DNA of 59,691 bases from Psammoneis japonica. Taxonomy: Eukaryota. Every line of letters begins with the position of its first letter. Position 1 is the first letter of the stretch. The stretch is from assembly GCA_008632985.1 (NCBI GenBank), contig QPGO01000154.1, positions 124,001 to 183,691 on the forward strand, in the 5' to 3' direction. Made by a program: the position numbers and the translations under genes. Positions 1-53,952 of this stretch are shown here, piece by piece. The notes under the pieces are model-generated. The model worked only from the letters and a program-made list of their open reading frames with translations, made no database searches and was not told the DNA's origin.

Positions 1-3000
1 TGACAATCGAGACGGTGAAATCCAAGGTTCAGTTTCACCGCGATTCCACTTGTGACCCCTCTCCGAATTGGATTGCGCTTGCCTGTGTGTGGCAAAAGTT
101 GAAGGGCAGACCTCATTTTTTTGCAGAGCTGATGGCTGTGAACACATTGTTGCAAAGGAACTTGGGCACAAGAGCTTGCTGCACTTTCTTTCCGCAAAAG
201 GATGGAGTCACTCCAGTCAAGGCGCCAAACATCCTCATGTGTTGGAGCATCACCGTGCTCCCAAAGCAGAGGACATGAAAGGCATCAGCGACAAGGCAAA
301 ATCAACAGACATTGCAACCAACATGATGGCAAAGATTTCCATGTTGCACAAGCTTCTCCATGATCCCGGATTGTGCAACCCAAAGGGAGAGCCACTTGTC
401 AAGCACATTGAGCTGAGAAGTTTTGAAGGGAAGGTTTTGCGTCACGCACAACACCTTCACATTGGTTTTTTGATTCTTCGTGACAAGATTCTGCCGTGCG
501 CACCTGAAAGGAATGGCGACTGCGATCATTGGCTGCACTCCCTGTTCGGCAAATGTGACGAGACATCGACTTGCATCAACTTTTTGGAGAATTTCCTGGC
601 TCTTGGTCACTGTGAGACAACCAAAGACGAATGACCCATGTCCTTCCCTGAATTCGTAAAGTCGTTGTTCCGCCAACACAAAAATTCTTGGGAAAAGCCT
701 GTGCGACTGGCGATGCTCGATGTCGAGCGAGAACAAATGCGCGCAACACATGTCGATGAGACTCTTTTAAGATGTGTGAAAATTGATCGTGTGGTTTCTG
801 CCACTGACGATTCAGGCAAAAGCAAGGCTGCAAGGGATCGTTTTGAGGCCATGTGGAAAGCCAGGCTTTGTGACTTTGCCACTCAGCACAAGAAGAAAGA
901 AATCGGCAATGCAATTCCATCCGTTGCGAAAAATGCTCGGAAACAAAAAAATCCAAATGGCGTGAATCCATCACATTGTTTGATTGATTGTTTGTGCTCC
1001 TCTTCTTGTCTCTAATTCTTCTGTTCTTCTTGCCACCTCTTTAGCCGCCTCCCTTTGCTCCTCAAGCCCCAGTCTCAAAAACCCCAAAGATGGCGAACCT
1101 TCTGATGTTTCTCAGAACAAATTGCTGATTCTCCAAGATGTGCCGACTCTCGAGGAACAATTTGAATGTTCCCGAACAAAGTGGCCGACCCTCGGCACAA
1201 CTCATCAGTCACCTCCTCCTCCTCCAGACAATTTCACAAAAGAAGAGCTTGTGAAAGTGTTTCCTGAACCATCTCCATTTGCGATTCTGGGTGAGGTGAA
1301 GTCACAACATTCTCACCTTGTTGTCTTTGAGGAAACCCCCATTTCCGCTTCCTTCAAGGGGAGCTGTGTCAAGCACCAGTTGTCCCACAGCATCTCCAAT
1401 TTCCACTTGGTGAATCACCTCCACAAGTTCATGCATGGATTTGAAAACGGCATGGCTCCCAATGATCCGATGCAAGAATCGATGGTTGCGGTTGCTTGCC
1501 CGACCCAGTCAACCTCTCATTTTTCCGACGTGGTCACTCATTTGTGACACACGGACAAGATGCATCAGAAGTGCTTTTTTGGATTGTGATTCAGTGTGTC
1601 ATCAATGCTCCGTGCAGTGTTGGAACATGGCAAGCCGAATGAAAAAAGGGATGGACCAGAATGCAAGTTGTGCTGTCAGATCTGTTTTGGTTGTTGTGGC
1701 CAGAATTGCGAAGTTGCAGACGGTGAGTTAGCTGAAGTGGGACCTGCTCACAAGCCTGGTGCTGTCTTTGGCAGGGACAAGTGGGAGAAGCTTCCAAAGG
1801 ATGTGCAGATGATGATGGCCTCAATCTTGGACGCCGCGCAACTCTGCGAGGACGAAATTGATCTTGTTGCTTTGAAAGAAATGCGCTCCTTCCATGACCC
1901 ACACTGCGACAGTCTTTTCGCGGCTGAGCTCCACAAGATGGTTGGAGCCAAGCACACTAGAAGGGAAGGCGAGGAAATTCAAGTGAAGTGTTGTTGCACC
2001 AAGACTGGTGCTCTTTGCTCTCACCGCGAGACGCTGTTGGTCGCTCTTGGTTGTTGAAGGTTGTCACTGCATCCAAAGGCAATGCTGGAAACTGTGTCAG
2101 TTCGGTGCATGGGCATGCCGAGTTCCGATCGCGTGTGCATGGTCATTTCACAAAACTTGATCTGTCACATGCTGCAGAAATGATGAGATGCCGTGGCCCT
2201 TGTTGTCCTCCTTTGGGCAAGCCAACCCACAGAAACATCAAAGATTTTTTCCTTGACCCTCACTCTGTGTGGGTGGAAGAGGAAATTGGCAAGCCAAATC
2301 TTCCGTCCGACACAGCTGAGCATCCCGTTGTTGTCGCGCCGAGGAAACGTCTTCCGTTTGCCATCGTGAAGGACTTTAATTTCTCGCGCGGCTGTTTGGC
2401 AATCATCGACAACCTCGATGAGGTTGGTGCACATGATTGCTTTCGTTGCGCCGTTGTGGCTGGGTGTCAAACTGGATTCTCCCGTTTTTGCTGCTTGTTG
2501 TGCAACACAGATGCTGTGAAGCATCCTTTCGTGGCTGGCGATTGTGTCCTTCATTGCTTCAGAGAAGCTGCAAGGCTGTTTGGCAGCATTGCAGGGGGAT
2601 CGCAATGACCAGCGCATGCAGAGCCCGGGACTCGATTTTGAGGAGGTTCATGTGGCAGAGTGTGGGACGAAACTTGACGGTTTGATGGACTTGCTTGTTG
2701 GCGGACTGGTTGTTGTCATCGACTGGATCAATGACAATGTTGGCAAGCCAACGTTCAACCACAAGGCAATCGAGGATGTGTTTGAAGCCGTGGTCCAAAC
2801 ATGGGATCATGCAGGTGCTGATTGTGGAGAGTTCAGATGCATGAACTCTGTGCAGACATTGATGCTGTGTGGCATGGGGATCCATCCTCACCCTGACCTT
2901 CGTAATCTTGTCTGTCCGGTGGCCAAGTTGGGAGCGGCAAGGCAAATGGAGGAAATGAAGGTCCCGGTGGAGGAGCACGATTTACTCTTGGAACGGACAG

Positions 3001-6000
3001 AGGGTGATTTTGATTTGGAAGACTGTGGAAAGAATGGCCCAGAGTCTTTGCCATGTGACCTGAGTGCAGCTCGTGAAAAGATGGGAATCTGCAATGTCTT
3101 TTGTTGTGGACAGCATCTGTTGCTCTTGTTCTCTGACAAGCAATCAATGATCAAGCGGTTTGGAAGGCACGAATGGGAGCCAGTCCCATTCGTGTTGATT
3201 GATGAAGTTCGAGCCGAACTGGAACGGCAAAGAGAGGTTGCTTTTTCATGGCAATCACATTTGTTTTTTTGTCTGATCATGCTGACATCATCACATTGAA
3301 TTCTTGTTCTAACAGGAAGAAGGCCGCCGGCGATTTGTTGTCACTCGCAATGAACAAAAGCGACAATTGCGAGGAGGAGTCAATTGACGAGAAAACAAGC
3401 AAACTTCCAACTGCTTGCATGGGTGAAGAGGACAAAAGCAAAGAGCCTGTTGACGATGAGCACAGCCAAGTTGCACATTGCTCCGAGGGTGAAGAGGACC
3501 ACAGCGACTCAGGAGATTGTTTTGCAAGTGACGAAACCAACGGGGAAACACACAATGTGCTGTGGTTGGGGATGACCCGTCCGCTCAATGCAAGGCATCT
3601 ATCTTCTCAAGAATTGTGCTCTGAGAAGGGGGCAGCCTCAGTGTCGTCCGACCAACACAGGCAAGACGAGGCCTGCGCAATGGCATTTGAGGAAACCAAC
3701 AAAACAGCCACAAACGTCGTTCCAACAGTTTCTCTCCAAGACGGCCATCCTGATCTGCACTTAAATTGCAATGTGAAAGCAAGAGATTTCGTCAAGAGAG
3801 TCAAGCAGCAGTTTGAGAAACTTGTTGATTTCGAAAATCATGGGTTCGACCAAATCATGTTGGACCACTGCTGGATGCCAGATGGAGAGTGGTGCGATGG
3901 TCGTTTTGGGATGACTCAATTTTTCCAGAGCCCAATTGATCTTTGGGCCTTGCTCTCCAAAAACGAAGAAGGGGGGGACATGGTGATTCCCTTTGCTCTT
4001 GCAACCTTCTTCCAGGTTGTCAAACAATGGAAGAAATCATCGGCTGTGTTCGACATGTGCACAATGGACAATGATGCTGCAAAGAGCCGTGCGAGCACAT
4101 TCTTTGCAAGCAACCTTGTGACCCAAGAACAATGAGAATGGTGGTTGGGAAAGCCCTCCGATCAAGAAGAAGCTTGTCTTGGAGTTTCCGAAGAAGACAT
4201 CAGAACAAAAGCAATGGAAGGTGCTTGCACTGCACTGCTTCACATGCACCACAATGACTTTGCTGATTCTGAAAGGATCAAATTCATCATGTTTGCAAGA
4301 AAGAGTCAGGAAATCACTGTGAGTGAATGACAGATTGACGTGCGCATCCTGTTTTAGAAACAAATCTGACCAACACTTCCTTCTGTCCTCTGTGGCCCAA
4401 ACAAATGGGGCCTTTTCTTGAGCTTCTGCTGCTCCTGGACATTCTTCACAAACCAAAACATTGCCCCCAATTGCTTCGACAGGGACAACCCGCAACTTGG
4501 GTGAGCACTGAGTCTTCTCAGGCGTTGAAAGCCAGCTGTTTTGTTTGTGATCAAGCTGCCAGCGACTGACCAAGTCTGTGTGCTGATGCCGTTGCCTCAC
4601 AGTTCTCTGGCCAACATTGACAGGGCCTTCATCAAGACTCACACTCGTTGTCCTTGTCTTGTGGATGAGAAGGGAAAAGAAGAACAACACGCAAAAAGTG
4701 GCGGGAAAATGGCAAACACTACATTGTCTTTCAGATTTGGGTGATTCTTGTGGGTGTGACGTGTCTGCATTTTGATTTTTTGTCTGGCTTTTACAGCGAA
4801 TGTTGTTCTTTTTTATTTGCTGTCAAAATGCAGGATGTTGTCTCCATTGAAACGCAATGACAGCCACATCAAAAAGCAAGTTGGACCATTCATTGTCATG
4901 CACAAACATGTTTTCAAATTTCAGTGTTGCTGACAACAATTCGTGCAATGTCGCAGAGAAAAACAGAGTGGCTGGCTGTCTCAACATGACCCAGACAACG
5001 GCTGCACTGTCGAACAGCAACACTCCTCTCATTGTTGCCGTGCAAAGATCAAGATGTCGTCTGCAGCACCATCGGCAAAGAAGAGAAAGAAAAATGACAC
5101 CATTGAGCCAATGAGCCCAAGACTTCAGGCAGTGTTGAAGAGAACAGGTGCGCAGGCAGTGCATGGTGCATTGAAATCAGAAGTGGAGAAGGTGGCTGGA
5201 AATGATCTCTTTCCACAGGTGAAGTTTCTCAGTCTGTCAGAATTGGCAAGCAATGGGAGCGTCTCAATGTTTGTGAAGAAACAGATTGCTGGTGGCAACA
5301 TGGACACTTCAAATTGGTCAGGAACTTGGGAGGAATGGGCAAAAAAGGCAGCAAAAAGGCAAATTGACAATCGCAGAAACACGGTGTGTTTGGCTGTTGG
5401 GGCGGAGGCAATGCCCCGTAAGTTGAGTGACCAATGTGTGTGATTCGAGAGTTGCGTGTGTCTCACAAGAAGATGACGGTGATGCTTTGTCTGTGTGGGC
5501 GTTGTCACTGAGGAAGAGGGAAAGGAAAAAGAAAAGAAGCTCAAGGCGGCAGTGTCAGGAGGAAAAAGCAAAGCAGGAAAAAGTCAAGCCGTGACAAGAA
5601 TGAAGAGAATGATGTCCTGTTTGTGCCGACATGGGATCCGTTTGGCCCAGACACTGTCACCGGCGGCAAATGAAGGAACAAGCAGGCACACAAGTGGTTC
5701 TGTGATCACATCCTGCCTCAAACCAAGCAAAAGCAGGCATGGAGCAGTGCCATCAAAACTGGGAATGCACAGGTCTCACAGTTGTTTGTGGCAGGTGACG
5801 AAGCTTTGGCACCATCAGCTGTGGAGAATTGTTGGCAGGTGTGGGCATGCAGGAACAAGGAGGAGGCGGTGGAAGAATTGGGCGAGGAAATGGAGCCCGA
5901 AGAAACAAGGCCTGCCCCTTGGCACATGAAGCCAAAGAAACAATGAGTGTCTTGGGGAGATGACGGAATCATTCGGTTCAACGACCCATGCAAAGAGGTG

Positions 6001-8490
6001 ACAAAAGACAGAGACTCCAAGGAGGGCAAGGAGTTTGAAAAGTGGTGTGCGGAGATCAAGAAAAGCAAGCACGAGAAGTCTGGAGAAGCAAAAAAGAAGA
6101 AGAAGACAGCGCCGGCCGGCGACACGGAGAAGGTGAAGGCAATGAACAGCCCAATGGTGGAGAGCAGCAGGGATGATGACAGTGACGATGATGAGCAGGA
6201 GGTGGGCGCAAAAGGCAAAATGAACAATGGAGGAGACGAGTCCGATGGAGACGAGTCCGATGGAGACAAGTCCGATGATGATTGTCAGCTCAGTTCAAGA
6301 GAGTTGCCACAAGAAAATGTGCACACAGTTGACATGGCACTCGGTCATTGCACTGCAGACGCAACAAGGGATTGACTTGGCCGATGAAGCGCTTTTCTTG
6401 TTTAAAATGATGTTTGTGAAAATTGACAAACCAAGGTTTGTGTGGCAATGCAATCATGCATTGGCATGTGGCAACAAGGTGGAGGCAGAAATGGCGATGT
6501 GGACACAGTGAAAACAGCACACACAATTCTTGACAAGTTGTTGCAATGTTGGCACACCAAACTTGCAACCAGAGGTTGGCCTGTCACCACATGACAATGA
6601 TGTTTTGCAACATTTTGACAAATTGTCATCATGTGAATCTGCGCGATTTTAACATTTCGTGCACTCTGATGTGCCAGCACAAAGGGGCAGTCTCCAGTGC
6701 CGAGGCCTGTGCCACACTGGTTGACGAGACTGCAGCTTTCCTCTCTTCTCATGAGAGCAGGCTGCAGTTCATTGCCTGTCCTCACAACTCGCCACCACCG
6801 GTTGGGAAGGCTCTTAAAGCGATTGAAGGCAGCATTTCCTTTGGCATTTTTGATGAAGCACACGACATGGAAGGAGCAGGAAGACTGTTTGGATGCAGTC
6901 TCTGCAGTGTGTGTTTCGTTTCTTCCAGCTGACCGCCAACTTTCCTGCCAGAAACTCCTCCTCGGTGCAAGCAGAAGTCTCCACAACAAATCACCGTTTT
7001 GAGGTTCCAAGCTTGACAAGCACTGCGTGCAAAACACTCTTGTCAAAGAGGGAAGAGACCACTCATTGCCTCTCGGGCATTGGGAGCCTCGTCGCTGAAG
7101 TGCTCTTTGGGCCGTGCATCAAACCACGGAAGCTGGGAGGAAGCACAGAGCTGAACATTGCAGCCCCCATTTCACAATGTGTTTTGGAGCAGAGGAGGTC
7201 AGTGAGCACCCACGTGTCGATGCCAGCCAACTCTCCAAAGATGCCTTTGTGCCTTTTGCATTCCAAGTGGCTTTCCATGCATCAAATGCAAGCCATGCTG
7301 TGCCGCTCCACTCTGCCAATGCACGAGCATGGTCTTTTGTGGACTCAACTAGAACGGTGTTGATGGAGGACATTTCTGCATTTGTTGAACGCAACAACAA
7401 GCTGCAAAGAACAGGAAAATGAAAAGCAAGTCGCAGGAAGAGGCTGGAGGAGATTGGAGCACACGCGGCAAGAAAAAGAGACGCACTTTGTTGCCAAAAT
7501 GCCAACGCGTGGGTGCGGCCGAATGGCTTTTGACTGTGCGGTGCTCCAAGATGAACTGGCCACGTGTGCTCCATGACAGTGGCTGCCGACAGCCAGATCC
7601 TGCCATCCAATGCAATCACACTGACACTCCAGACAAAAACTGCACGACAGCTTCAAGCCAGCCCTGCACTGCAAGACATCACCCCTTCCTTGTCACACAC
7701 GTTTGACGCCTGACCCAATTCACTGCATCGCTCAGATTGGGGCACAAGGAGCGTGGCGGAGTGGTGCAAGCAAAGATTGTCAAATGACGTGTGATGTGCG
7801 GATGTTGTTGGGACATGCTCGAACAATCACAGCCGAGCACATCAAATGCTTCTGTGCCACTGATGGCAGGTGATGTGATGCGGGCAGTGCTGCAATGCCT
7901 GCAGCGGGTGATGATGATTGATTCCAGGCAGATTTCTCCATCAAATGTGTCCACCTGATCATCTTCTGACGTCAAACGCGTGCTTTTCGCAACTTTCTGC
8001 GCAGAGCGCAAGGTGCCCCATGTGTCCCGAAGAAGTGTCAGCTGAGCTGCTTTGTCAGTGTCGTGTTGCTCAAAGGCAGCAGTCAAGCGGCAGCATCAAT
8101 GCGGTTGTTTTGACCCGCAGCTTCTCTTTCATCATGGATCTTGTGCTTGGTGCTTTTTTGTTGAAGGCAGACCTCGGTCTGCCGATCGTGCTGTGCTCCG
8201 AGTCTGGCAACAGCGGAGCACACACAGAGCAAACAGACAATGGGACACTCAGTGGCGCACTTGCATTTGGCTGAAACCAAGCAGAAGCAGCAGAAACTGG
8301 GGCCATCATGGTGTGTTCGATCGTTTCGCGTTTGGCGTTGAAAATGAGAAATGAGCGCGTTCGATCATCGAGACACGACACTGCAACTTGAGGTTAGCCG
8401 GCGGCGCGGCTGACGCGGAAGTTTGGCGCCAAATTTCCCGGAAATTTCGCGCATGCGCCAAATTCACAATCTCCTGCCCTCTTCGCTTCA
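1..8490. other. TpA-depleted degraded repeat/TE-like block with broken ORFs (family not identified)
   Basis: TA is almost absent over 8.5 kb. Overlapping Tyr-free, Cys/His-rich ORFs occur in all frames. Several + strand ORF fragments look protein-like (3248-4135, 4943-6375), but I see no recognisable transposase motif. Confidence 0.6.
6546..7140 (+). pseudogene. Possible superfamily-2 helicase fragment (DEAH motif II)
   Basis: SFGIFDEAHDMEG in ORF 6546-6932, followed in another frame by FRFFQLTAN (motif III TAT-like) and EVLFGPCI. No Walker A motif is recognisable. Confidence 0.35.
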
Positions 8491-8787
8491 TTCAGATGAT
8501 AACCAGAGCACAGAAGCACAGAGCATGCTAGCTAGACCCCTGCCGTAGGTTGAGCACCCCCCCCCCCCAAAAAAAGGTTCTCGTTGTGCATGGGAAGAAT
8601 AGTTCGTTCGATATCCGGAAAGAGAGTTTATTAGTGTACGCGCAAGCAACATAGCACGACTCACGAGATCGAGATCCTTCAGCGTAGGGTTAGAGGGCAA
8701 AAACCTTGGTGTTTGCTTCTGCGCTGGAACCGCACAGTGTACATCTCACTCGGAACGGCGACCCAACATTACGATTTCGAATAAAAG

Positions 8788-9804: not shown

Positions 9805-10469
9805 ACTTTCAATCGCATGCGAAACGAGTCCTCGAATTTTTACCCTTTATTGTTAGGCAGGATTGCGGATTATTTGCTGATCAAGCATCTGAAGCATCTT
9901 TGTTTCCTTCTGCAGTTTAGACAATGAACATCATTGATTTTGGCAGTTGTAGTGGTGGTGCTGCTGACATCGGAAGATATAGCTCTGGATGTAAATATTC
10001 TCCCTTGTCGCAGCAGTAGGAGAGTTCCGAGCTCAAAGAAGAACAGCCTTTTTTCGAATCGAAGATTGCTTCTCTTTGACTTTGGAAGAGATACGGCGTC
10101 TGAGGAAGAAGGATCGCAAGAGGAGCAAGTAAGGTGTCGATTGAGGACAACACAGCAGATTTTGATTGTTCCCTCGCATACCTCAGGAACCTTGTGAGAA
10201 CGGAGCGGAAAGTCGTAATGAGATGCAAGAGTAGACGACTCCGAGGGCTAAACTTAGAATTAGCAGGATTTTCTACGTTTCTGACATTAGTATTCAACGA
10301 ATTACTTAAGTTCAGGCATTCATGCGAGAAGAGATCCTTACCGCTATTCGACCTGTCGCCGGACCAATTCTGCCACCATTTTGGCCACAGAGCCTGTGGC
10401 TCCTGTCTTGTCATCCCAAACCTGAAAATCTTTTCAATGAGAAAGATAAGAAAGCATTAGGTACGCCAG

Positions 10470-12500: not shown

Positions 12501-12577
12501 AGAGTCACGAATGTGGACTGCCACACAGACACACAGACACACAGACAATGCGACAAGCGCAACAATCTGAAATCCCG

Positions 12578-12759
12578 CGAATGAATGCCGATGTGGCCGC
12601 GTGGGGCAATGACAGCACCTCAAGCCTGAGAGCAGCAGTGACAAACCAAAGAGAACCCTGTGTCGATTAGATCGCACAAGATTGTGGGAAAGAACAAACC
12701 ACCAGATCGTGCGCGTCAGCCCCGGACCAGGGACTGACCGCTCCACCCAGATTTGCTCG
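12578..12759 (-). repeat. 3' LTR of copia element 1 (mutated copy)
   Basis: Aligns without gaps to 19231-19412. It is preceded on the minus strand by GCGGGGAC (weak PPT-like tract). Confidence 0.93.
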
Positions 12760-12842
12760 GTCCCCGCGAAACGGCAGTGACAACGCCGATTCGTCTAAAC
12801 CTGGAACATCCTCTCATAGAGAGGCAAACACAAAACCCAAAT

Positions 12843-17246: not shown

Positions 17247-17255
17247 CCCGATCAG

Positions 17256-26970: not shown

Positions 26971-26977
26971 TCTCACA

Positions 26978-27177: not shown

Positions 27178-27179
27178 CA

Positions 27180-27438: not shown

Positions 27439-27513
<75 letters not shown>

Positions 27514-40310: not shown

Positions 40311-40319
40311 GAGTTCTTC

Positions 40320-42481: not shown

Positions 42482-42972
42482 CAGGGCGGTGGGGAGTTAC
42501 GGCAGCGTGCAACTCGCGTTGGCTTGTCATGAGTTCACGATGACGTTCTCGCGCCGCTGCATCTGCACGACGCATCCAAGGCGGTGTGGTGTCATTGTCG
42601 CTGCCCCCCACATTTTGATTCTCGACATTAGACTGATGTCCAATGTAAGTGCCACCTACATTTAAACTGAAATTAGTTGCTCGTGCAGCCGTTCCATACA
42701 CCAAATCTTGCAGTTGCCCCACAGACATCCCGACTGAAAGACCCCGACCACCACCGTCACCGACACCAACGTGAGCCACAGCATCATTTGCTGGTGCCAC
42801 TGGCGGCACACGACGGGCAATCTGATAATGTGCAATAAAGATTGGCAAGGATAAGAGGCAGCAATAAACAATTAGACGACACATGACGGAAGAAAGACAA
42901 AACTTACAGGAGCGGTAGCCACGAGTCGCTCCGGGGAATTCTCGGATACCGTCTCGACGACAGGGGATTGAC

Positions 42973-43206
42973 GAGTCACGACTCAACGTCATTCTGGTCG
43001 CATCTCACGACTACAACCCAGACTCAGATTTTCTCTTCGAAATAAACAGCTCATCACAAAATCGATTCAAACAGAAGCAACGACATTCGTCATAATTTTT
43101 AGACAACGACTTTGAACAAGCGTCTGTTTACCTCTGTCGCTGTTCATATTGCTGCCAACCTCCGAGGTCTTGTCCATCCTGCCAGCTGTGGGACTGCATC
43201 TCGACT
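42973..43206 (+). repeat. 5' LTR of copia element 2
   Basis: Matches 49980-50211. It reads AGTCACGA...TCTCGACT and is followed by GGTCATGGAGACC (possible PBS). Confidence 0.9.
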
Positions 43207-43368
43207 GGTCATGGAGACCAATTTGCGTGTTGACGAGAGCTCCTGACCGAGTCATCGTCACGGACGCTTTTGGTTTTTGATTTTGAAGCAAACCCGGGAA
43301 ATAGCTGAGTCTCTCTTGCTTCTCTCGTCTTCATTCTAACCAGAATCTCCCATGCCACACTCTCTGTC

Positions 43369-45540
43369 ATGGCTGCCATCGACCCGGATGTTCTGGCGAA
43401 GGTGTTTGCCGATGCAATGGCCGCCAACGCCGCAGCGAACGCTCCTCCGCCTCCAACCAAGCCGTCACGTGGTGGAATTCACCCAACCCACGGGGTTTAC
43501 ATTGGTGGTTCCAAACTCGATGACAACTGTGAACAATCCAACGACAGAACCTGCCGACTCGCCTCTCAGCGCCGTCATCCCAAGGCTCTCGACTCGATGG
43601 AACGATCTCTCCGCGATCAACAAGCTTCCGCAATGACTTCCAAGTTCAACGGTCGACTTGAGATTTCGGATGGTCCCATCAACGAGCTTGACAAGGACCA
43701 CTTCGTCAAGACTGTTCGAGATCTGGCAGAAGCCCACGGTCAGCAGACGTTCCACCATGTCAAGAACAGCGACGACAAGGTTCAACATGTCTTCGAACAT
43801 CTCCACGAGTTTGCTGTGACCGATCTCGTGAACGAATACAAGGTTGGGAAAGCAGCTGCCGATGACGCCAAGTACGACGAGATCAAGCTCGACGACATCG
43901 GGCTCTCTCAGCCACTCGTTCACTCAAGAATCACCAATGCCTTTCGCGAGAAAATCGAGACCAAGTTCAACCATCTCAAGGACTGCCAAGACTGCCCTGG
44001 ATCTGTTCTGTTCATGATGGCTCTCGACACTTGCAATGCTGGCACTCTGACGGATGTTGAGATGGCTGAGAAGCAGCCAGAAGACCTCAGTTTGGTTGAC
44101 TGTCCCGGCGAGGATTGCACGGACTTTGCTGCCGAAGCTCTTCGCATCATGAAAATCGTGCAGACCGACTGCGCGCTTCCGGCGAACACAAGCTCCAAGC
44201 TGCTCCACAAGATCTCCTCTGCGTCCTCTGAATGCTTCAATCGGAGAGTCTGCAACAAGCTCGACGACGTCAAGGCTGTGGAACGCAAGTGCCGCCTCAA
44301 GAATCCTGCTGACATCACGTCCGACAGCGATTGCAACACGCTCGGACCGGTCGGTGTCATTGCGTGGATTCAGGAGCAACACAATGAACTCGTGAAGGAT
44401 GGGGAGTGGCCTGCTTTGGTCGCCAAGCTACCCGCAAGCAATCTTTTGACTGCGGATGACCCTGGGAAGATGAAGCACTGTTGTGGTTGCGGTCTCGAGG
44501 GGCACACCAAGAAGACGTGCCCGAAGTGCAACGCCAAACCGCCGCGCGACGATCCTCCTACGAATCCGCCGCCTGCAGACGACCCTTCCAAGAAGAAGCG
44601 GAGACCCATCGCTGCCTGGCACATTAAATTTGATGGAGAAACGAAGAAGGACAAGAATGGCAAGGAATGGAAGTGGTGTGCCACGTGCACGGCAAAGGGT
44701 GCCGACAAACCTGGAATCCATCAGAAGCACTCTACCGCGGAACATGCCGCAGACCACAAGCGTCCTCCCAAGGAAACCCCAGCCGGGAATCTGTCTTCCG
44801 TTGCTGATCCGGACAGTGGCGTGCCCATGGGTCCGCCAGCTCAGACCACCAAGGAACCAGAGGGAGACGAGTCCGACCCCAACGAGTTGGTTTTCACGGG
44901 AATGTGGTGCGCGGCCACAGATGCCGTCACCGACCCGGATTTCTTTCCTGATCCTGTTGCTGCTGCAATTGTTGTCACTCCGGCTTCTTCAGCCGAGAGG
45001 GAGAGCGATGCAGTCATTGGCACTGAGGTGCTTTGCAACGAAACGAGCCCATCTGTGCTCACCTCAGTCATGGATCCAGTCGTGTCTCCCATCGTGGTTG
45101 AGACTGTCACTCCTGAAGACGCCGATGACTTCTGTGAATGCTGCAACGCTTTCTCTACATTTGAAAACGAACCACCGGCTATTGAGTTGTTTCCGGCCTC
45201 GAAGCTGCACTCTGTCAAGCATCCTGATGAGTTCTTTGACGCTCCCGCAAATTTGACGGGTGTGCTGTCAGACGACACAAAGTCAGATCTCATCCTTGAA
45301 CACGACGTACACTTTGAAGACGCATGCTGCGACTTGCCTCCGTGTGTTGCATGTTGTGGCTTCGATTTCTACGATCCAGAGATCCTGGATGTGGATGATT
45401 GTCACGAGGACGTCGAAGACGAGCCCACTTCGCGTCGATCAATCTTGGGGCGGGTCAAGCTGTTCACATTCTGGCTTGCCGCCATGTTTTGGGAAATGGT
45501 GCTGCACTTTTGCTTTGCTCCGATCCCAAGTGTGCCTTGA
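43369..45540 (+). pseudogene. Copia gag-like ORF
   Basis: 723 aa with a CCGCGLEGHTKKTC zinc knuckle and a WKWCATC motif. Confidence 0.8.
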
Positions 45541-45570
45541 GCTCTACGCCGCCAGGGCAAACTCCCAACC

Positions 45571-48500
45571 TTGCATGGGTTTCCAGCCTCCTGGATGGTC
45601 CTGTCCATTGCAGTTATGGTGTGGTCAGCAGTTTGCGCCGGTCAACAGCCCGAGCATCCGTTCTCGAACATGCCAAGCCGTTTTTCGACCGCTGGCTCTC
45701 AAGTCTACCACATTGTGGAAGAGCTAGATGACCGGACAGTGTCAGATGCGGGGTCACTGTTCGAATGTCACAGGATCAAAGGCACGCAAGCACTCACCGA
45801 GTTTGTTGCGCGCCATCCATCACACGCACTGAGCACTCGTCTCAAGGCCTGCTGGGAGAGCCCAGAAGCAGCTGAAAGGTCTGACACGATAGACGAATCA
45901 GCCTTCTTTGACACCTGTGAGGAACTGGAACCTCTCGATGACCAGAAGCATTTCTTCGATGCTCTTGAGGACTTCAGCCCAGATTTCTTCCAGTTTGATG
46001 AGCTCTGTCTGCCCAATCACATCGTGGACACTGCTCATTTTCAAGATCCTGTGGAACTGTTGGAGGACGCACATGCCAGGCCAGTTGTCTACAACACCTC
46101 CACCATCCAACTGCTCACCGGACAATCTCAAGCCGACCTTCTTGCATCCGATCTGCAGGCACTCATCGGTCTGTCGGACGAAGCTCTCACGGTTGTCATG
46201 GACACTGGTGCCACGCCAGCCATTGCCCCCGACAAAGATGATTTTGCGGGGCCCATGACTGTTCCCAAGAAACCCTTGCAGATCAATGGGATTGCCAATG
46301 GTCTTGCCATCCAGGGTGCCGGTCCGGTTGCGTGGGTGTTCACAACGCCAAGTGGCGCCACCATCCAACTGAACACCATGGCGCGCTACGTCCCTGGAGC
46401 CCGTCAACGCCTGCCATCGCCTCAACGCCTCTTCAACGAAGAGAAGGGGGCACGTGGGAAGTGTGAGGGCAATGAAACCACTTTCCGTGTGCACATTGAC
46501 GGGACAGGCAAGTTGGTCGTGCCATGTCACCCATCAAGCCACTTGCCCATTGCGTCGATGACCAAGGGCGCATCTGCCGCTCCACAAGTGAATCTACAAA
46601 TCCTCAACAAGGAGAATCAAAGCCTCACGGCAGGCCAAAAGCTTCTTGTCGAAATGCATGCCCGTTTTGGCCATTTAAACTTTGGTCGCGTCCAAGCACT
46701 TCTCCGCGCAGTTCCGTTCCCATTGAACCGTTTCAAGTTCACAGCGAAGTGTGACCACCCAAGATGCGAGGCATGCGAGCATGCCAAAGGTCACAGACAC
46801 TCCCTTGCATCCACTCACAAGTCGACAGTCCCTGAACGCGACAGGGCCCTTCAAGCTGACCATCTTCGACCGGGTCAGGCTGTCAGCGTTGATCATTTTG
46901 AGTCGTGCCTTTTAGGCCGAACCTTTGACTCATGTGGCAAAGCCACGTCCAAGCAATTCAAGGGCGGTTGTGTCTTTGTCAACCACGCCTCTGGATGTGT
47001 CCAGGTTGAGCACCAACTGGGTTTCTCCACTGTTGAGACGATGTGAGTGAAGCAAGCGCATGAGAAACATGCTTTGGACCACGGTGTCATCGTCCAAGAA
47101 TTTCTTGCCGACAGCGGCGCTTTCAAGGCCAATGCTTTTGTGCAACATGTGCGAGATCATGAACAACGTCTCCGTTTTTGTGGAACCAACGCCCATCATC
47201 AGAACGGCGTCACAGAGCGGGGCATCCAACGCATCTCCAACATGGCGAGAGCGATGTTGCTTCATGCATCAATCCACTGGAAAGGGGGAATTGACAGCTC
47301 CCTGTGGCCCATGGCTGTTTCTCATGCCACACGTGTCTACAATGTCACCCCAAATTCCAAGGGACATTGCCCAGCGGACATTTTCACCGGTTCGACAGTG
47401 CCAAGACACCGTTTGTGAGACATTCACACATGGGGATGTCCAGCACACGCACTTGATCCAACCCTCGCTTCCAGAAAGAAACTCCCGCATTGGGAACCTC
47501 GCACTCATCACACTTTGTTCGTGGGACTCAGTGCCATCCATCCCAGTGAGGTTCCTTTGGTCCTCAGTCTACAAACTGGAAGTGTCACTCCTCAGTGTCA
47601 TGTGGTCTTTGACGATCTCTTCACTGCCGCACCATCAATCGAGAGGGAGACGGATCCACCTGATCACTGGGAGCACTCATGTCTCAACCAATCGACATGC
47701 ATCCTTCTGGAGAAGGAACAATCAGTCCATTCACACGATGAGTGGCTTGCCCCTCCAGAGCATCAACGTAAAGAACGCAAACCAGCCAGAGCGACACGTG
47801 TTCGCGGCCATTTTGAGCCTGCTCCATCGACTGCTGTGCCGGATTCACCCACTTCTCGCGACGACGTTGCCGATCGAGTCGCACCTGCCACTCAGCAGCC
47901 AATGCCACCAGTCCCACCTGCAACTCAAACTCCTGCAGACCCTGCGGACTCCATGCCAATTCTGCCACCTGAACCTCAAGACAGTGACAAACTTCTGCCA
48001 CCCAAAGTGCCGACGGAACCAACAGCTCCTCCCCCAGTCAAGACACCTCCTGTGACGGATCCAGAGGGAGTGTCAGGGCTGCGACGGTCTTCAAGGTCAA
48101 CCAAGGGAAAGTTCAACTCTGCCAAGTTTGTAGATGAAGTCTGCTTCAGCTCCGTCAAGGAAGTGCCGCTGCCGATCGGACACGAGGCTCAACTGGCTCA
48201 TCTGGCAACTCTTGAGACGGATTTGGACAGTGGTGCCATCAATGTCTTCGATCCACGAGCCTGCGCAGCTAGTGAGAAAACCAAGGACCCTGATGTGCCT
48301 TCGTTGCACAATGCTCTGAAAGGTCCGGATGCCAACGAATGGACCAAGGCAATGAAAATTGAAGTCAACGCACTCACACATCATCAAGCCTGGAAAGCAG
48401 TCGAGCGTCAGCCGCACATGAATGCACTTCCAGGTGCATGGGCACTCAAGCTCAAGAGACTCCCAGATGGAACCCCTCTCAAGCACAAGGCCCGATGCTG

Positions 48501-49959
48501 TGTCCGTGGTGATTTACAGAAAGAAGGAGTCAACCACTTCAAAACCTGCATGCCAGTTGTGCAATGGTCCAGCATCCGACTCATGCTCACTGCGGTGTTA
48601 AAGGAGGGATGGACCACACATCAGGTGGACCACACCACAGCCTTTTGCCAAGCTGATGTCGCCGAGGAAGTTTGCATGACACTGCCGAAGGGTTTTGCGC
48701 CGAGGTCGGGACTCAACATGGTTCTCAAACTTTTGAAAGGACCACACAGCCTAAAACAGTCTCCCAAGGGCTTCCACGAGAAGTTGCGAGCTGGTTTAAC
48801 CGAGCACGGATGGGCACCTTCAACCATGGACCCCTGTTTGTATTTCAAAGAGGGTGTGATGTGTGTGGTGCACGTCGACGACACCGCATTTGCTGGAGCT
48901 TCAGCTGAAGCTCTGGAGGAAGAAATTCGCAAGTTAGGAGTCTCCAACGACGAACATCGCCACGCATTTGAACTTAGAGACGAAGGAGAAGTCGGTGACT
49001 TTCTCGGCATCAAGATCGAAAAGCTCTCCGAGGGTCGATTTCCACTCACTCAACCCGGTCTAATTGACAAGGTCCTGCGCACCGCACAGATGCAGGATTG
49101 CAATGGAGCATCCACTCCAGCTCCACCTGCGGCTGTTGGTGCCGACACGGATGGCCCACCTTTTGATGAACCCTGCGATTGTCGCTCAGTTGTTGGAATG
49201 TTGATGTGCTTGGCAGCGAACAGCCGGCCAGACATTGCGTGTGCCACACATCAAGTGGCTCGATTTTCGTTTGCACCCCGAGCGTCCCACGCTGCTGCAG
49301 TGAAGCGGATGCTCCGATGCCTCAAAGCAACTGCTGCTGAAGGTCTCATTCTCAAGCCTGTGCAAGACCATCGAGTTGATTGTTGCGTCGATTCTGACTT
49401 CGCGGGGTTGTTTGGTGTGGAAGATGGTCAAGACCCAGTTTCTGTCAAGTCCAGGACTGGACACCTTGTCTGCTGCGCCGGCTGCCCGCTTGTCTGGGTG
49501 TCCAAGCTGCAGACTCTTGCAGCATTGTCGACCATGGAAGCGGAACATGTCGCACTTTCTCAAGCCATGTGCGATCTCATCCCTGTTCGTGAAGTTCTCA
49601 AGGAACTCAACCACCACGCATTCGGAAAGTCTGGCCGCCAAAACCCCACCACAACTCACTCCAAGGCTTTTGAGCTCGCAAACCAAGGCACCGATGACTC
49701 GCCTGTTGAGCAGAATGTCCCACCTGTGTCCGTTGTGTACAAAGACAACTCCGCGTGCCTCAAGTTCGCACGCATGCCCAAGTTGTCTCCGCAAACCAAA
49801 CACATCGGCATCCCGCACCACTGGTTTAGGACTAAAGTTGAACAATTGGAGATCGATGTCCAACCTGTCAGCACTCTAGAGCAACTGGCCGATCAGTTCA
49901 CGAAGGGACTGCGGACCGATGCGTTCCGTACGGCTAGAAAGGCTCTTATGGGCTGGTGA
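45571..49959 (+). pseudogene. Copia pol (PR, IN, RT, RH) with in-frame TGA stops and a frameshift
   Basis: VMDTGAT (PR), HARFGH...CEAC, VSVD...ADSG...QNGVTER (IN), HKARCCVRGD and VHVDD (RT), VDSDFAG...QLADQFTK...LMGW (RH). TGA stops at 47044 and 47416. Confidence 0.92.
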
Positions 49960-49979
49960 GCTCTCTCGGTTGAGAGGGA

Positions 49980-50211
49980 GAGTCACGACTCAACGTCATT
50001 CTGGTCGCATCTCACGACTACAACCCAGACTCAGATTTTCTCTTCGAAATAATTAGCTCATCACAAAATCGATTCAAACAGAAGCAACGACATTCGTCAC
50101 AATTTCTAGACAACGACTTTCAACAAGCGTCTGTTTGCCTCTGTCGCCATTCATGTTGCTGCCAACCTCCGAGGTCTCATCCATCCTGCTCAGCTGTGGG
50201 ACTGCATCTCG
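49980..50211 (+). repeat. 3' LTR of copia element 2 (probably clipped by about 3 bp)
   Basis: Matches the 5' LTR up to CATCTCG and then runs directly into reductase coding sequence. Confidence 0.88.
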
Positions 50212-50841
50212 TCCAATGCGAAGCTCGCCTTGGCGGCAGAAAAGGTGGCGGTCGGGTTGGGAGCACAAACCAAGTGCATCAATCTTGGATCTCACGAGCT
50301 GCCCCTCTACAATCAAGATGACGAGGCGGACAAGGGGATGCCATCCAACGCTGTGAAACTCAAGGAGGAGTTGTCATCAGCAGATGGATGGATCATTGCT
50401 GGTCCCGAGCACAACGGATCCATTGTGCCCCTTGTTGTCAACGCATTTACGTGGTGCAGCCGTGGCGACCCAGAAGGATCGCCCATGTGCGCCACATTTC
50501 ATGGAAAGTCTGCAACAGTTCTCAGTGCGTCTCCTGGCGCCATGGGAGGCATGAGGTCGTTGAATCCTCATCGTCAGTTGTTGCAAAACTTGGGAGTGAA
50601 CGTGTTGCCCGCATCGGTTGCTGCAGGAGGCGCCTTCAATGCCTTTGATGACACTGGAGCCTTGACGGATTCACGGCACAAATCCATGCTTGAGGCCGCA
50701 GTCAGTGATCTTTGTTGCCAAACGAGAGACAAAGCGAACCGCGAAGCAACGTGTGATTTAATCCGTGCCAGCACGGTGGGAGAGTGCGGAAATGTCGACG
50801 TGGCTCAACAGTGGTTTTTGCCAATGCAAGCATCACAGTAG
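50212..50841 (+). pseudogene. NADPH-dependent FMN reductase (flavodoxin-like), 5'-truncated and TpA-mutated
   Basis: SNAKLA, LPLYNQD, ADGWIIAGPEHNGS (PEYNGS motif), LSASPGAMGGMRSL. The N-terminal GSxR phosphate-binding loop is missing. Confidence 0.85.
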
Positions 50842-51515
50842 ATTCAATGTTGAATCATCATCCTGCCGATGGACGGGTTCACACACAACTGCATTTTCGA
50901 CGCAACGAAGAGCACCACTCTCTCTCTCTCTCTCTCTGTCAAGCGTGTTTGATCTCTCGAATTTTTCGGCTCTTACCCACCAATGAGGAGGGGGAAACGC
51001 GTCTCGCACAAGCAACATTGTGATCCCAGGAAGAAAGCTGAGAGTCACAGCTGCTGTCAGGGTCTCTGGAACTTCGATGAGTTGGATCCGCGACAACTGC
51101 CGCAACAGAGGAACACCGGCAAGAGAGTGGAAAATCTGTCTGTGTGCACAATTTCCATCCGAGGCAATTGCGACTAATTTTTTTGAAATTTCAACACAAT
51201 GTCAATGAATGCATGTCTGCAACAATGCGTCATCGGCGGTGACGACAGAAGCTCGAGCGATGTGCGTGCGATGTTGTGATGACGATCCTCATTCCTCATC
51301 ATGGCACTGTTTGTGTCGGCGTGCCACGCAATGCAAACAACCCACGCCACAACCATCAACAGACATTGCCATGCGGGATCACACCCTGGCATGTGTCCTT
51401 CAGCCTGAAGCCTTCAGTGCGTTGCCGACGCCGACTGCCCATTGATTTGCCCACTCTTGGGCGTTCGTTGGGGGCTCTCTGACAGATGCAATGGTGATGA
51501 TTGCGCGGCTGATGG

Positions 51516-53726
51516 TTGTCGCCTTTGTTTGCGTTAAAGCAATTCTTGGCTCCAAATGCAGCGGTTGCGAAGATCGTCAGGCATGAAACGCATTCTCTGC
51601 TTTGGAAGAAGTTGCGGTGCAAGGGCGTTTCGCAATGCATGAGTTCTTTTTTTGTCACGCAAGTGAAGATCACTGCAAGGGTTCGTCCACTTTCCAATTT
51701 CGCACATGCCTCACATTCTCCACCTCTCCCGCTTCCAACACAGCAAAGGCATTGCTCCAAGAACTGTCGACAACTTGGACACGGCAAGAAGAAGGGTGTT
51801 AAAAAAGGAAAGTTTACGAATGTAGCGAGGAAACGAGGGAAAAGGAGTGAAACGCCATCCGCAGCCCCCTCGAGTTCTCCAAGCGGCAAGCCATCCCAAG
51901 AACCGTCCAGTGTGCCATCCAGGTCACCCAGTTCTGCTCCAAGTGGTGCTCCCAGCATTTCTCCAAGTAAGAGCCCGTCGGCAGCACCCTCTAGCATGCC
52001 CAGTGAATCGCCTTCCGAATCGCCTTCCGAATCGCCAAGCGCCACACCGAGTGATTCTCCGAGTGAAACCCCGTCAGACATTCCTTCAAACATGCCAAGC
52101 GCATCGCCGTCCCAAAAACCAAGCAATGCCCCGAGTGGCGCTCCCAGCAGCGCTCCAAGCGACGCCCCGTCGGATGCACCTTCGAAAATACCGAGTAGAT
52201 CGCCAAGCTGTGCGCCGAGTAGAACTCCAAGTGAAACTCCGTCGGATGCACCTTCAAACATGCCGAGCAAATCGCCGTCCCAAACACCAAGCAATGCGCC
52301 AAGTAGTGTGCCAAGTAAACGCCCAAGTGAAACACCATCGGAATTTCCTTCAGGCATGCCGAGCACATCGCCGTCCCAAAAACCAAGCATTCTCCCAAGC
52401 AGTGCTCCCAGTGGCGCTCCAAGTGAAACCCCGTCGAACGTGCCTTCAAACATTCCGAGTGCGTCACCGTCCCAAATGCCAAGTGATGCCCCAAGCAGTG
52501 CTCCCAGTGAGTTTCCGAGTGAAAATCCATTGGAGTTACCTTCCAGCGTGCCGAGTAGATTGCCAAGCTCTGTTCCCAGCACTGCTCCAAGTGGAACCCC
52601 ATCGGATGCACATGCCATCAAAACAAGTTCATCGCCGTCCGAAACACCAAACAGCTCCCCAACGCCGCCTTCTTCACCGGCAGGTCCCACAGTTCCTTCG
52701 ACTCCACCATCAGATGCTCCTTCATCAGGCCCGGTGGCTGGCCCAACACCTCCTCCATCGAGTTCGCCATCCGGTGCACCATCATCAGGCCCGGTGGCTG
52801 GCCCCACACCCCCTCCAACAGCGACACCATCGGATGCTCCTTCATCAGGCCCGGTGGCTGGCCCAACACCTCCTCCATCGAGTTCGCCATCCAGTGCACC
52901 ATCATCAGGCCCGGTGGCTGGCCCGACATCCCCTCCAACAGCGACACCATCGGATGCTCCTTCATCAGGCCCGGTGGCTGGCCCCACACCTCCTCCATCG
53001 AGTTCGCCATCCGGTGCACCATCATCAGGCCCGGTGGCTAGTCCCACACCCCCTCCAACAGCGACACCATCGGATGCTCCTTCATCAGGCCCGGTGGCTG
53101 GCCCCACACCTCCTCCATCGAGTTCGCCATCCGGTGCACCATCATCAGGCCCGGTGGCTAGTCCCACACCCCCTCCAACAGCGACACCATCGGATGCTCC
53201 TTCATCAGGCCCGGTGGCTGGCCCAACACCTCCTCCATCGAGTTCGCCATCCAGTGCACCATCATCAGGCCCGGTGGCTAGTCCCACACCCCCTCCCACA
53301 GCGACACCATCGGATGCGCCTTCATCAGGCCCGGTGGCTGGCCCCACACCTCCTCCATCGAGTTCACCATCTGGTGCACCATCATCAGGCCCGGTGGCTA
53401 GTCCCACAGCGACACCATCGGACACCCCTTCATCAGGCCCGGTGGCTGGCCCCACACCTCCTCCATCGAGTTCGCCATCCGGTGCACCATCATCAGGCCC
53501 GGTGGCTGGCCCCACACCTCCTCCATCGACTTCACCATCCTCTGGTCCAACAGAGCCATCAACAGCACCTGACAGTGTTCCGTCAACATCTCCACCCGGC
53601 TCTCCGTCCTCGGGTCCTGCAGCTCCGTCAATGGGCCCCGCAGCACCGACGTTTCCAACAGTCTCGGGTCCGACAGCTCCGTCAGCACCCGCACCCCCAC
53701 CGACTCAAATCTTCCGTAGAAAGTGA
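51516..53726 (+). CDS. Pro/Ser/Thr-rich repeat protein (possibly extracellular or cell-wall); 5' end uncertain and may be degraded
   Basis: Lys-rich segment followed by (PSxx)n repeats and 60-bp SDAPSSGPVAGPTPPP-type tandem units at about 52705-53530. Confidence 0.6.
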   Translation: MSPLFALKQFLAPNAAVAKIVRHETHSLLWKKLRCKGVSQCMSSFFVTQVKITARVRPLSNFAHASHSPPLPLPTQQRHCSKNCRQLGHGKKKGVKKGKFTNVARKRGKRSETPSAAPSSSPSGKPSQEPSSVPSRSPSSAPSGAPSISPSKSPSAAPSSMPSESPSESPSESPSATPSDSPSETPSDIPSNMPSASPSQKPSNAPSGAPSSAPSDAPSDAPSKIPSRSPSCAPSRTPSETPSDAPSNMPSKSPSQTPSNAPSSVPSKRPSETPSEFPSGMPSTSPSQKPSILPSSAPSGAPSETPSNVPSNIPSASPSQMPSDAPSSAPSEFPSENPLELPSSVPSRLPSSVPSTAPSGTPSDAHAIKTSSSPSETPNSSPTPPSSPAGPTVPSTPPSDAPSSGPVAGPTPPPSSSPSGAPSSGPVAGPTPPPTATPSDAPSSGPVAGPTPPPSSSPSSAPSSGPVAGPTSPPTATPSDAPSSGPVAGPTPPPSSSPSGAPSSGPVASPTPPPTATPSDAPSSGPVAGPTPPPSSSPSGAPSSGPVASPTPPPTATPSDAPSSGPVAGPTPPPSSSPSSAPSSGPVASPTPPPTATPSDAPSSGPVAGPTPPPSSSPSGAPSSGPVASPTATPSDTPSSGPVAGPTPPPSSSPSGAPSSGPVAGPTPPPSTSPSSGPTEPSTAPDSVPSTSPPGSPSSGPAAPSMGPAAPTFPTVSGPTAPSAPAPPPTQIFRRK

Positions 53727-53952
53727 TTGTGAAGCCCGTGTGCGTTGTATCTTGAACGACACTGCGCACTTCAGCAATTCAGCGTCTTTGCAATACCTAA
53801 ATCTTCCGTAGGTGAGGCTGCGTGCGTTGTACCTTAGACGGTACTGCGCACTTAAACAATTCATCGTCTTTGCACGGCATTGGAAATGGGTGGGGAAACA
53901 ATAGAAAATGATCGGTGACTGAGAAGTACAGCAGTGCACTAAACAGAAACGA

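Follow-up and report, generated by a model that had tools for sequence, protein, structure and literature searches.

Sharply bounded domains of TpA depletion across retrotransposons and host-type sequence in the diatom Psammoneis japonica

In-place hypermutation of a single dinucleotide has been described in fungi and, recently, in a rhizarian alga. Here we report a pattern of this kind in a diatom. The window, by which we mean the whole stretch of 59,691 bases that was analysed (Psammoneis japonica, GenBank assembly GCA_008632985.1, contig QPGO01000154.1, positions 124,001 to 183,691), carries long domains from which the dinucleotide TpA has nearly vanished, separated by islands of normal genes. 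The domains hold two copia retrotransposons, degraded genes of host type and an old gene fragment. That TpA is depleted in sharply bounded domains is confirmed by the analyses presented below.

The closest described system is that of the chlorarachniophyte Bigelowiella natans (Mettrop et al., bioRxiv 10.64898/2026.01.13.699255). In this preprint, 231 of 302 de novo mutations fell in two integrated viral regions, one from a giant virus and one from a virophage, and 230 of these 231 were A to G or T to C changes, all on TpA by the authors' account. The local rate was ~6e-7, about 1000 times the background, and the process was active in some lines only. The preprint also describes 124 clusters that are poor in TpA and rich in CpA and TpG, with reverse-transcriptase and DDE domains enriched in TpA-poor coding sequences. 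The authors' candidate is a homologue of ADAT2 acting as a DNA adenine deaminase, and they cite ADAT2/ADAT3 as acting on DNA in Trypanosoma and amphioxus (10.64898/2026.01.13.699255). A search of full-text literature turned up no diatom in which TpA hypermutation had been described, and this preprint was the only match.

The window has much in common with B. natans: only TpA is changed, to TpG or CpA, both strands are affected and the affected regions are of kilobase scale in an otherwise normal genome. The host of that system is a rhizarian and the targets are viral inserts, that is non-host DNA, whereas P. japonica is a stramenopile and the targets are long terminal repeat (LTR) retrotransposons, namely two copia elements, together with dead genes of host type (sequence derived from M17, FMN_red and EMP70 genes). 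In B. natans the depletion is partial, with a Rho of 0.45 in the region from a nucleocytoplasmic large DNA virus and none in the virophage region, whereas here it is near complete (observed/expected ratio, o/e, 0.03-0.14). In addition to what the preprint reports, the window has edges inside elements near host promoters, a coupled tier of CpG loss and a suggested preference for a 3' pyrimidine.

Fungal repeat-induced point mutation (RIP), known from Neurospora and others, turns C:G into T:A, thereby creating TpA, stop codons and AT-rich DNA, and it requires duplication. It resembles the present case in making in-place transitions at one dinucleotide on both strands, in riddling transposons and in that it can leak into neighbouring sequence. 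However, the polarity is opposite: in the window TpA is destroyed, GC content in the depleted zones is 0.49-0.55, no TAA or TAG stops are made and frames run to 1470 codons. RIP itself was rejected on these grounds. Other likenesses are more distant. ADAR hyperediting of double-stranded RNA from repeats and APOBEC3 editing of retroelement cDNA restrict retroelements by deamination, but the substrates are RNA or, ahead of integration, single-stranded cDNA, and the resulting changes are strand-biased, whereas the changes described here are made after integration, are symmetric between strands and also affect DNA that is not from retroelements. A study of diatom methylation (PMC9998398) reports that DNMT5a methylates transposon CpG in the diatom Phaeodactylum tricornutum and that diatom DNMT4 is related to RID. 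The decay of methylated CpG in such transposons gives the same CpG to TpG or CpA change that is seen in our domains. It is an ordinary process that would account for the CpG loss only.

Extent and edges of the depleted domains

Depletion was segmented with a two-state hidden Markov model (HMM) on TA positions, and the expected TA count of each zone was computed from the gene islands' own o/e of 0.589. The model returned depleted zones at 1-8499, 10463-18988, 26089-34227, 36195-40321, 40728-41694 and 43148-53716. Their main components are as follows.

1-8499: domain D1, middle CpG tier; TA 22 against 320 expected, 93% lost; CG o/e 0.60
10463-12576: zone poor in TA and CG; TA 7 against 83 expected, 92% lost; CG o/e 0.32
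12578-19412, minus strand: copia element 1 (RVT_2; 3' LTR 12577-12759, 5' LTR 19230-19412, target site duplication CCCG); TA 61 against 204 expected, 70% lost; CG o/e 0.97
26089-34227: domain D3, TpA and CpG both lost; TA 14 against 305 expected, 95% lost; CG o/e 0.18
36195-40321: domain D4, TpA and CpG both lost, holds an EMP70 fragment; TA 7 against 159 expected, 96% lost; CG o/e 0.11
42973-50211, plus strand: copia element 2 (RVT_2, E 2.6e-33; gag_pre-integrs; LTRs 42973-43203 and 49980-50211); TA 47 against 219 expected, 79% lost; CG o/e 0.80
50212-51900: sequence downstream of copia element 2; TA 10 against 57 expected, 82% lost
51901-53716: GC-rich tandem repeat with a PT-repeat open reading frame (ORF; Pfam PT repeat); TA 13 against 41 expected; GC 0.56-0.65

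For the first seven of these the Poisson probability of the TA deficit lies between 1e-14 and 1e-109, and for the six without 50212-51900 between 1e-27 and 1e-109. Over the whole window the o/e is 0.26 for TA, 1.45 for CA and 1.47 for TG, and the normal zones between the depleted ones have a TA o/e of 0.44-0.63, plus one 406-bp tract at 1.08. The GC content of normal zones (0.46-0.51) is nearly equal to that of the depleted zones, therefore base composition does not explain the TA pattern. An initial annotation of the window had listed five TA-poor blocks between normal islands. Most of its edges lie within ~15 bp of those of the HMM, although its edge at 34080 lies ~150 bp inside ours at 34227. 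Its fifth block, 43140-51800, holds at the left edge (43148), but the depleted zone of the HMM continues to 53716 through the GC-rich repeat.

The transitions at domain edges are 50-250 bp wide, and some are steps. For example, a TA at 26088 is followed by the next one at 27057, while on the other side of a domain the TA at 39951 is followed by TAs at 40322, 40327, 40333 and on. The domains do not respect element boundaries, as had been claimed: edges lie inside copia element 1 (18988), inside the 5' LTR of copia element 2 (~43148) and, at 10463, within the final intron of an M17 pseudogene, and the edge at 34227 is a gradient that runs into the 5' end of a duplicated EMP70 gene (34196-34362). 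The mutated portion of copia element 1 is 12577-18988, close to the end at about 19000 first proposed, and the spared portion, 18989-19412, consists of the 5' untranslated region and the 5' LTR. In copia element 2 the mutated portion begins at ~43148, with kept and converted sites intermixed over ~30 bp. By their coordinates, both spared copia ends adjoin the upstream regions of host genes, Snf7 (plus strand, from ~19.5 kb) and a minus-strand frame ending near 43.0 kb.

Two side observations concern the right-hand edges. A tract at 40320-40440, exactly at the right edge of 36195-40321, consists of CTAG, GTAG and CTAC words with a TA o/e of 1.08; it could be what is left of the end of an element, or else a sequence that marks the boundary. 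The right margins at 7900-8499, 33680-34227 (the last ~550 bp) and 40200-40321 are free of TA and have normal CG density. From this composition it looks as if the TA-erasing domains have more recently grown by 100-600 bp at those margins.

Direction and timing of the change

The two LTRs of a retrotransposon are identical at the moment of integration. Those of copia element 1 (183 bp) now differ at 13 positions, every one of them with TA in the 5' LTR and TG or CA in the 3' LTR, and at no others. The 5' LTR retains 14 TA and the 3' LTR only 1, while each has 12 CG; in other words 13 of 14 TpA and none of 12 CpG have changed. If substitutions were random, the probability that all 13 differences would be of the TA type is 1.6e-17.

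The LTR pair alone gives no polarity, so proteins were used for the direction. An alignment was made of the reverse transcriptase (RT)-RNase H frame of copia element 2 and 25 homologues from diatoms (~50% identity), and a column counted as a Tyr column if 70% or more of these homologues carry Tyr there. Among 18 conserved Tyr columns the window reads His (CAY) in 7, Cys (TGY) in 7, Tyr in 1 and another residue in 3. Other residue classes are kept at 67-100%, with the exceptions of Ile (45%) and Asn (3 of 6). The same frame carries V to A changes and R to H, C or Q changes, as predicted for codons of the forms GTA and CGN. The share of Tyr in the copia, FMN_red and M17 frames is 0.2-0.6%, against 1.0-4.4% in 99 homologues; it is 0.2% in the 1470-aa ORF of copia element 1 and 1.7-5.1% in the genes of the islands. 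Tyr codons and TA-containing signals disappear from the depleted domains, and frames as long as 1470 codons survive, since the process gives rise to neither TAA nor TAG.

Both strands are affected about equally. TG o/e is near CA o/e in all domains, and a run test on the TG and CA labels found no same-strand clustering beyond that of the normal zones (z -0.2 to -1.8). Taken together, the protein comparison and the symmetry between strands rule out the editing of transcripts before reverse transcription, and likewise the idea that a RIP-like process added TA to the islands. We conclude, with high confidence, that TpA has been changed to TpG or CpA in place on the DNA, after insertion.

Public sequencing data give a further view of copia element 1. 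Logan contigs from the runs X1 and X2 (three runs, one sample) were compared with positions 10001-30000. X1 behaves like genomic DNA; its library type is off record and it may be the assembly's own data. X2 was taken as cDNA-like, though the record is silent, since it contains joints with GT..AG or CT..AC ends (19557>19736 and 10419>10496) that X1 lacks. X2 contigs are missing from most of the depleted zones, an absence that is not read as evidence on expression. In total 994 X1 contigs matched, and their summed word depth, which is not a copy number, was 700-1160 over copia element 1 against 52-61 in the flanks. The many similar contigs over the element indicate a multi-copy family. The places where X1 differs comprise 212 transitions and 48 transversions. 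Among the 40 variant rows listed for other copia copies, with 235 further rows beyond them, 14 make up seven CA/TG double differences, 21 set CG against TG or CA, 2 set TA against TG and 3 are of other kinds. The seven doubles point to copies that were hit independently of one another after duplication.

In one X1 contig position 12573 runs straight on into 19413, the two sides having 4 letters in common, and the window has CCCG at both 12574-12577 and 19413-19416. The joint matches the target site duplication, which suggests an allele with an empty site and an insertion that is probably still heterozygous or polymorphic. If so, then ~70% of the TpA of this element would have gone before any other substitution occurred in its LTRs. 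The element would also have landed where the depleted M17 zone formerly met the upstream region of Snf7, and would then have been mutated from the silent side to within ~420 bp of the host flank.

The depleted domains are not restricted to retrotransposons. The following sequences of host type lie in or beside them.

10353-11627, minus strand: frameshifted M17 leucyl-aminopeptidase pseudogene (Pfam Peptidase_M17, E 8e-19)
50209-50838, plus strand: FMN-reductase-type remnant (Pfam FMN_red, E 8.7e-24, profile 14-150), starting at the end of the 3' LTR of copia element 2
37584-38022, plus strand: third, degenerate EMP70 fragment (tblastn), in domain D4
23611-25854, plus strand: EMP70 copy A (Pfam)
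34166-36205, plus strand: EMP70 copy B, a tandem duplicate between two depleted domains, in three frame pieces and probably a pseudogene

With 109 full-length homologues as tblastn queries, the M17 pseudogene can be followed from ~11627 to 10353 in high-scoring segments of several frames. The final exon, 10353-10419, is part of normal DNA, the domain edge at 10463 falls within the last intron (10420-10495, from the X2 joint 10419>10496 with CT..AC ends) and the remainder sits in the zone 10463-12576. Compared with chains from the PDB, the motif YRPGD reads HGPGD and NTDAEGRL reads NADAKGGL. Likewise the FMN_red remnant, which lies within the depleted 50212-51900, reads PEHNGS in place of PEYNYS (PDB 1rtt and 4hs4) and contains 0.4% Tyr.

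The EMP70 copies illustrate both an advanced state of the process and its absence. Over 258 aligned bases the fragment in D4 has kept none of the 12 TA of the intact gene (7 are now TG and 3 CA) and none of the 14 CG (10 are now TG or CA, 6 CA and 4 TG), among 62 transitions and 20 transversions in all. A tandem duplication of ~10.2 kb spans the EMP70 region (23877-26036 and 34166-36205). Copies A and B, compared over 24334-26036 and 34504-36205, are identical in 1633 of 1703 columns (96%), and their 69 substitutions comprise 34 transversions, 18 other transitions, 10 changes of CG type and only 7 of TA type. At the 5' end of copy B, 34196-34362, ~6 of 11 ancestral TA have been converted. A duplicate that stays free of hypermutation at 96% identity shows that homology alone is not the trigger, and on this point the initial annotation, which had argued for chromatin domains rather than homology alone, is borne out; the part assigned to chromatin is one that we infer.

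The depleted DNA that adjoins the duplicated gene holds a further pair of copies. The D3 segment 26473-26970 is homologous to 36662-37174 in D4 (~500 bp, 74% identity) and differs from it by 18 TG/CA double differences. These show that each copy was mutated on its own once the duplication had taken place, with chance deciding between TG and CA at every ancestral site.

What else do the large blocks contain? Part of the content of the three is derived from host genes. Of 115 stop-to-stop ORFs of at least 110 aa overlapping the non-copia zones, 95 were scanned against Pfam, the 20 omitted being ones that overlapped copia, the repeat tract or island genes. Among the 95, no transposon family was matched in 1-8499, 26089-34227 or 36195-40321, and no ORF of D1 gave any Pfam match. 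Copia homologues of more than 1000 aa, used as tblastn queries, matched the two copia elements only, and local alignments in purine/pyrimidine code, which are blind to transitions, returned only the homologies already known and none for D1.

The residual TA give a hint of the sequence context. The 146 TA left in depleted DNA, compared with 668 in normal DNA, are enriched in YTAR contexts (TTAA 4.4x, CTAA 2.8x, CTAG 2.2x) and scarce in RTAY contexts (ATAT 0.11, ATAC 0.17, GTAC 0.34). In mixed contexts YTGY plus RCAR is up by 19 per kb and the opposite products, YCAY plus RTGR, by 7 per kb. This suggests a moderate target preference for 5'-TAY-3'.

A second and slower tier, CpG to TpG or CpA, is seen in the same domains. 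The copia elements keep their CpG (CG o/e 0.97 and 0.80), whereas the 26-34 kb and 36-40 kb blocks have lost it (0.18 and 0.11), and D1 and the M17 zone lie between, as given in the list above. At 26089 and 36195 the edge of CpG loss falls together with that of TpA loss. The proposal that TpA loss outruns CpG loss is upheld by the LTR pair, where 13 of 14 TpA and 0 of 12 CpG have changed, and by the old EMP70 fragment, where the figures are 12 of 12 and 14 of 14. Both processes converge on TG and CA, as had been noted, and the CG against TG or CA class is the one that fills 21 of the 40 X1 variant rows. The CpG tier would be explained by deamination of 5-methylcytosine. The two speeds that were to serve as a two-stage clock of repeat age are indeed visible; the clock itself rests on four data points that are uncalibrated.

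Related elements from elsewhere serve as a control. In 66 related copia loci from metagenomes no 1-kb window has a TA o/e below 0.25, and the whole-locus values are 0.47-0.91, therefore the depletion is not intrinsic to the element lineage. Many of these loci are poor in CpG (o/e 0.23-0.6) with normal TpA, which indicates that the decay of CpG in copia elements is common and the erasure of TpA is not.

Proposed mechanism and competing explanations

We propose that a regionally targeted hypermutation acts at the level of DNA and turns TpA into TpG or CpA (A:T to G:C), on either strand about equally. It would act after insertion, on retrotransposons and on anything else in the same domain, including pseudogenised genes of host type and old duplicated gene fragments, and it would come to a halt over 50-250 bp, at positions that need bear no relation to the ends of elements. 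Slower decay of CpG to TpG or CpA in the same domains would form the second tier. The erasure of TpA outpaces this decay and background substitution alike. These steps, i.e. an in-place erasure of TpA that is bound to domains, affects both strands, ends at sharp edges and is followed by a CpG tier, we hold to be very probably correct as listed. The signature matches that of B. natans in each of three respects: the changes are almost only TpA to TpG or CpA (13 of 13 LTR differences, 14 of 18 Tyr columns, 10 of 12 TA in the EMP70 fragment), they affect both strands (His and Cys 7:7, TG about equal to CA, no strand runs) and they lie in discrete regions with normal flanks (HMM, edges of 50-250 bp).

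The chemistry may be adenine deamination to hypoxanthine in DNA, by a deaminase of TadA/ADAT type or another, a proposal that we hold with a little less than even confidence. Hypoxanthine pairs with C. The natural target of TadA/ADAT enzymes, A34 of tRNAs, has U33 before it in all cases, and the bacterial enzyme TadA acts on U-A-C-G. For this reason a DNA-acting member of the ADAT/TadA family would be expected to favour 5'-TA, perhaps TAY. The likeness to ADAT2/ADAT3 would thus be a mechanistic analogy only, through the 5'-TA or TAY preference.

As for the guide, silent and cytosine-methylated chromatin, with active promoters as barriers, seems to us about evenly balanced between right and wrong. 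It is suggested by the coincidence of CpG and TpA edges at 26089 and 36195, by the spared transposon ends beside host upstream regions and by the precedent of DNMT5a in P. tricornutum. We tentatively suggest, at a lower level of confidence, a wider scenario: a chromatin-guided adenine deaminase defence common to diatoms and chlorarachniophytes and maybe old in the group of stramenopiles, alveolates and rhizarians (SAR). Such a defence might erase the TpA of new insertions that are still polymorphic, might be stopped by promoters within 1-2 nucleosomes and might consume host genes that fall in silent domains.

The same chemistry could instead be triggered by sequence repetition, with multi-copy DNA recognised by homology as in fungal RIP. 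The copia family is indeed multi-copy, with an X1 depth far above the flanks, and both the EMP70 fragment in D4 and the 500 bp shared between D3 and D4 are duplicated and mutated. That said, the EMP70 A/B pair, which exceeds every other duplicate in the window in both length and similarity, diverges in the ordinary way, with TA-type changes at 7 of 69, and this is also why the duplication requirement of RIP was rejected. Two edges, at 18988 and ~43148, lie within repeated elements and leave intact LTR sequence that is no less repeated than the rest, and the word depth over 10668-12001 and 26009-30000, though no copy number, is at the flank level of 49-76. We regard a repetition trigger as unlikely.

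The remaining alternatives are far less probable. Retrotransposon RNA could have undergone A-to-I editing by an ADAR- or ADAT-like enzyme that was then fixed by reverse transcription, so that elements arrived already poor in TA. A UA context would fit the preference of ADARs for a U 5' of the edited A, as cited in the B. natans preprint (bioRxiv 10.64898/2026.01.13.699255), and retrotransposons are the clearest targets. However, the LTRs of a single insertion differ at 13 TpA sites, both strands are affected (His and Cys at 7:7, TG similar to CA), edges fall inside an LTR and a host intron, and M17, FMN_red and EMP70 sequences, none of them retroelements, are mutated as well, which makes such editing very improbable. 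We think equally little of an artefact of sequencing or assembly, in which modified bases of silent DNA, for instance methylated adenine or cytosine, would be miscalled as G/A or T/C. Some long-read platforms do miscall modified bases, and methylation is probable in the DNA that the domains cover. But X1 contigs reproduce the TA-free single-copy sequence at a depth of 52-61 (e.g. a 2004-nt contig over 10550-12516 with 5 differences), a gap of 471 N in the window is typical of short-read scaffolding, different copies have TG and CA at the same former TA sites, and the old domains also carry transversions, frameshifts and indels. Selection against TpA or UpA, or compositional drift in non-coding or foreign DNA, is more improbable still. 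Mild under-representation of TpA is common, and the islands themselves have an o/e of 0.59. Against this stand the step edges within tens of bases, the destruction of conserved coding residues, the 13 changes in the LTR pair, all of them at TpA, and the lack of depletion in related elements elsewhere. Finally, the polarity could be the reverse, with a RIP-like change of C to T having made TpA in the islands and in the spared LTR, and the TA-free state being ancestral. The LTR pair by itself gives no direction and would allow this. Yet columns that are Tyr in 25 homologues read His or Cys in the window, PEYN has become PEHN and YRPGD has become HGPGD, and the o/e of the islands, 0.59, lies within the 0.47-0.91 of the 66 related loci. 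This alternative we consider next to impossible.

Several observations weigh against targeted hypermutation of silent chromatin as we propose it, or against parts of its support. The signature was found in none of the 66 metagenome loci and none of the 99 database homologues, and hence is not general among the sampled diatom copia elements. In the old domains the TAY preference is confounded by CpG decay. The empty-site joint comes from a single contig with 23 letters on its shorter side, and sides of fewer than 30 are less reliable. X1 may be the assembly's own sample, so its agreement with the window is not an independent proof against an artefact. The mutated sequences of host type may in part be paralogous copies, in which case a trigger based on repeats would be possible for these. 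A spliced, cDNA-like X2 contig also enters the depleted zone for ~200 bp (10496-10667), which indicates that depleted domains are not strictly untranscribed.

A side observation concerns this last contig. Compared with the window, 2 nt are missing from it at 10528 and 1 nt at 10614, where X1 agrees with the window, and it may come from a paralogue or from another allele. On balance the interpretation given in the initial annotation is partly supported.

Gene islands, other features and significance

The islands encode Snf7/VPS60, MCM2, EMP70, a lipid desaturase and a protein kinase fragment, as identified with Pfam. The island between copia element 1 and domain D3, which also holds EMP70 copy A, is described by the following entries.

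19413-26088: gene island with normal TpA; TA o/e 0.61, CG o/e 1.05
19572-20429, plus strand: Snf7/VPS60 (Pfam)
20577-23618, minus strand: MCM2 (Pfam)

The best relatives of the MCM2 protein are from raphid pennate diatoms, with Amphora, Cylindrotheca, Nitzschia and Seminavis among the matches; the identity is at most ~83% and none is identical. The 5' end of Snf7/VPS60 contains a 178-nt GT..AG intron, 19558-19735, according to a spliced X2 joint.

Two further TA-poor tracts deserve separate mention. An ORF of 664 codons on the minus strand, 40505-42496, contains the ~1-kb sub-zone 40728-41694, with a TA o/e of 0.14 and normal CpG. Pfam gave no family for the ORF, and none of 8000 candidates scored was a relative. 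The sub-zone may be a domain of the young tier, and the ORF may be open only through the lack of TAA and TAG. The GC-rich tract at 51901-53716 is built from the repeat families D1 and D2, with periods of 60, 96 and 120 nt, has one TA per 120 nt and carries long ORFs on both strands; its TA poverty may be compositional or due to hypermutation. The scaffold gap of 471 N lies at 58448-58918.

The finding that is new here is a TpA signature near completion in a diatom. The sole experimental description so far, the 2026 preprint, comes from a rhizarian alga and shows partial depletion. The window adds to the anatomy of the process, with young retrotransposons, edges that stop near host promoters, collateral damage to genes of host type, a CpG tier and a hint of a TAY preference. 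The result also has a practical side for the annotation of genomes, as hypermutated elements keep long ORFs without Tyr and escape homology searches, especially in old domains.

Diatoms have major ecological weight and include genetically tractable species, and several questions thereby become addressable. Which DNA adenine deaminase is at work? What guides it? How widely is a RIP-like defence of opposite polarity spread among eukaryotes? If the interpretation is true, the decay of TpA and that of CpG would jointly provide a built-in, two-speed clock of the age of silencing.

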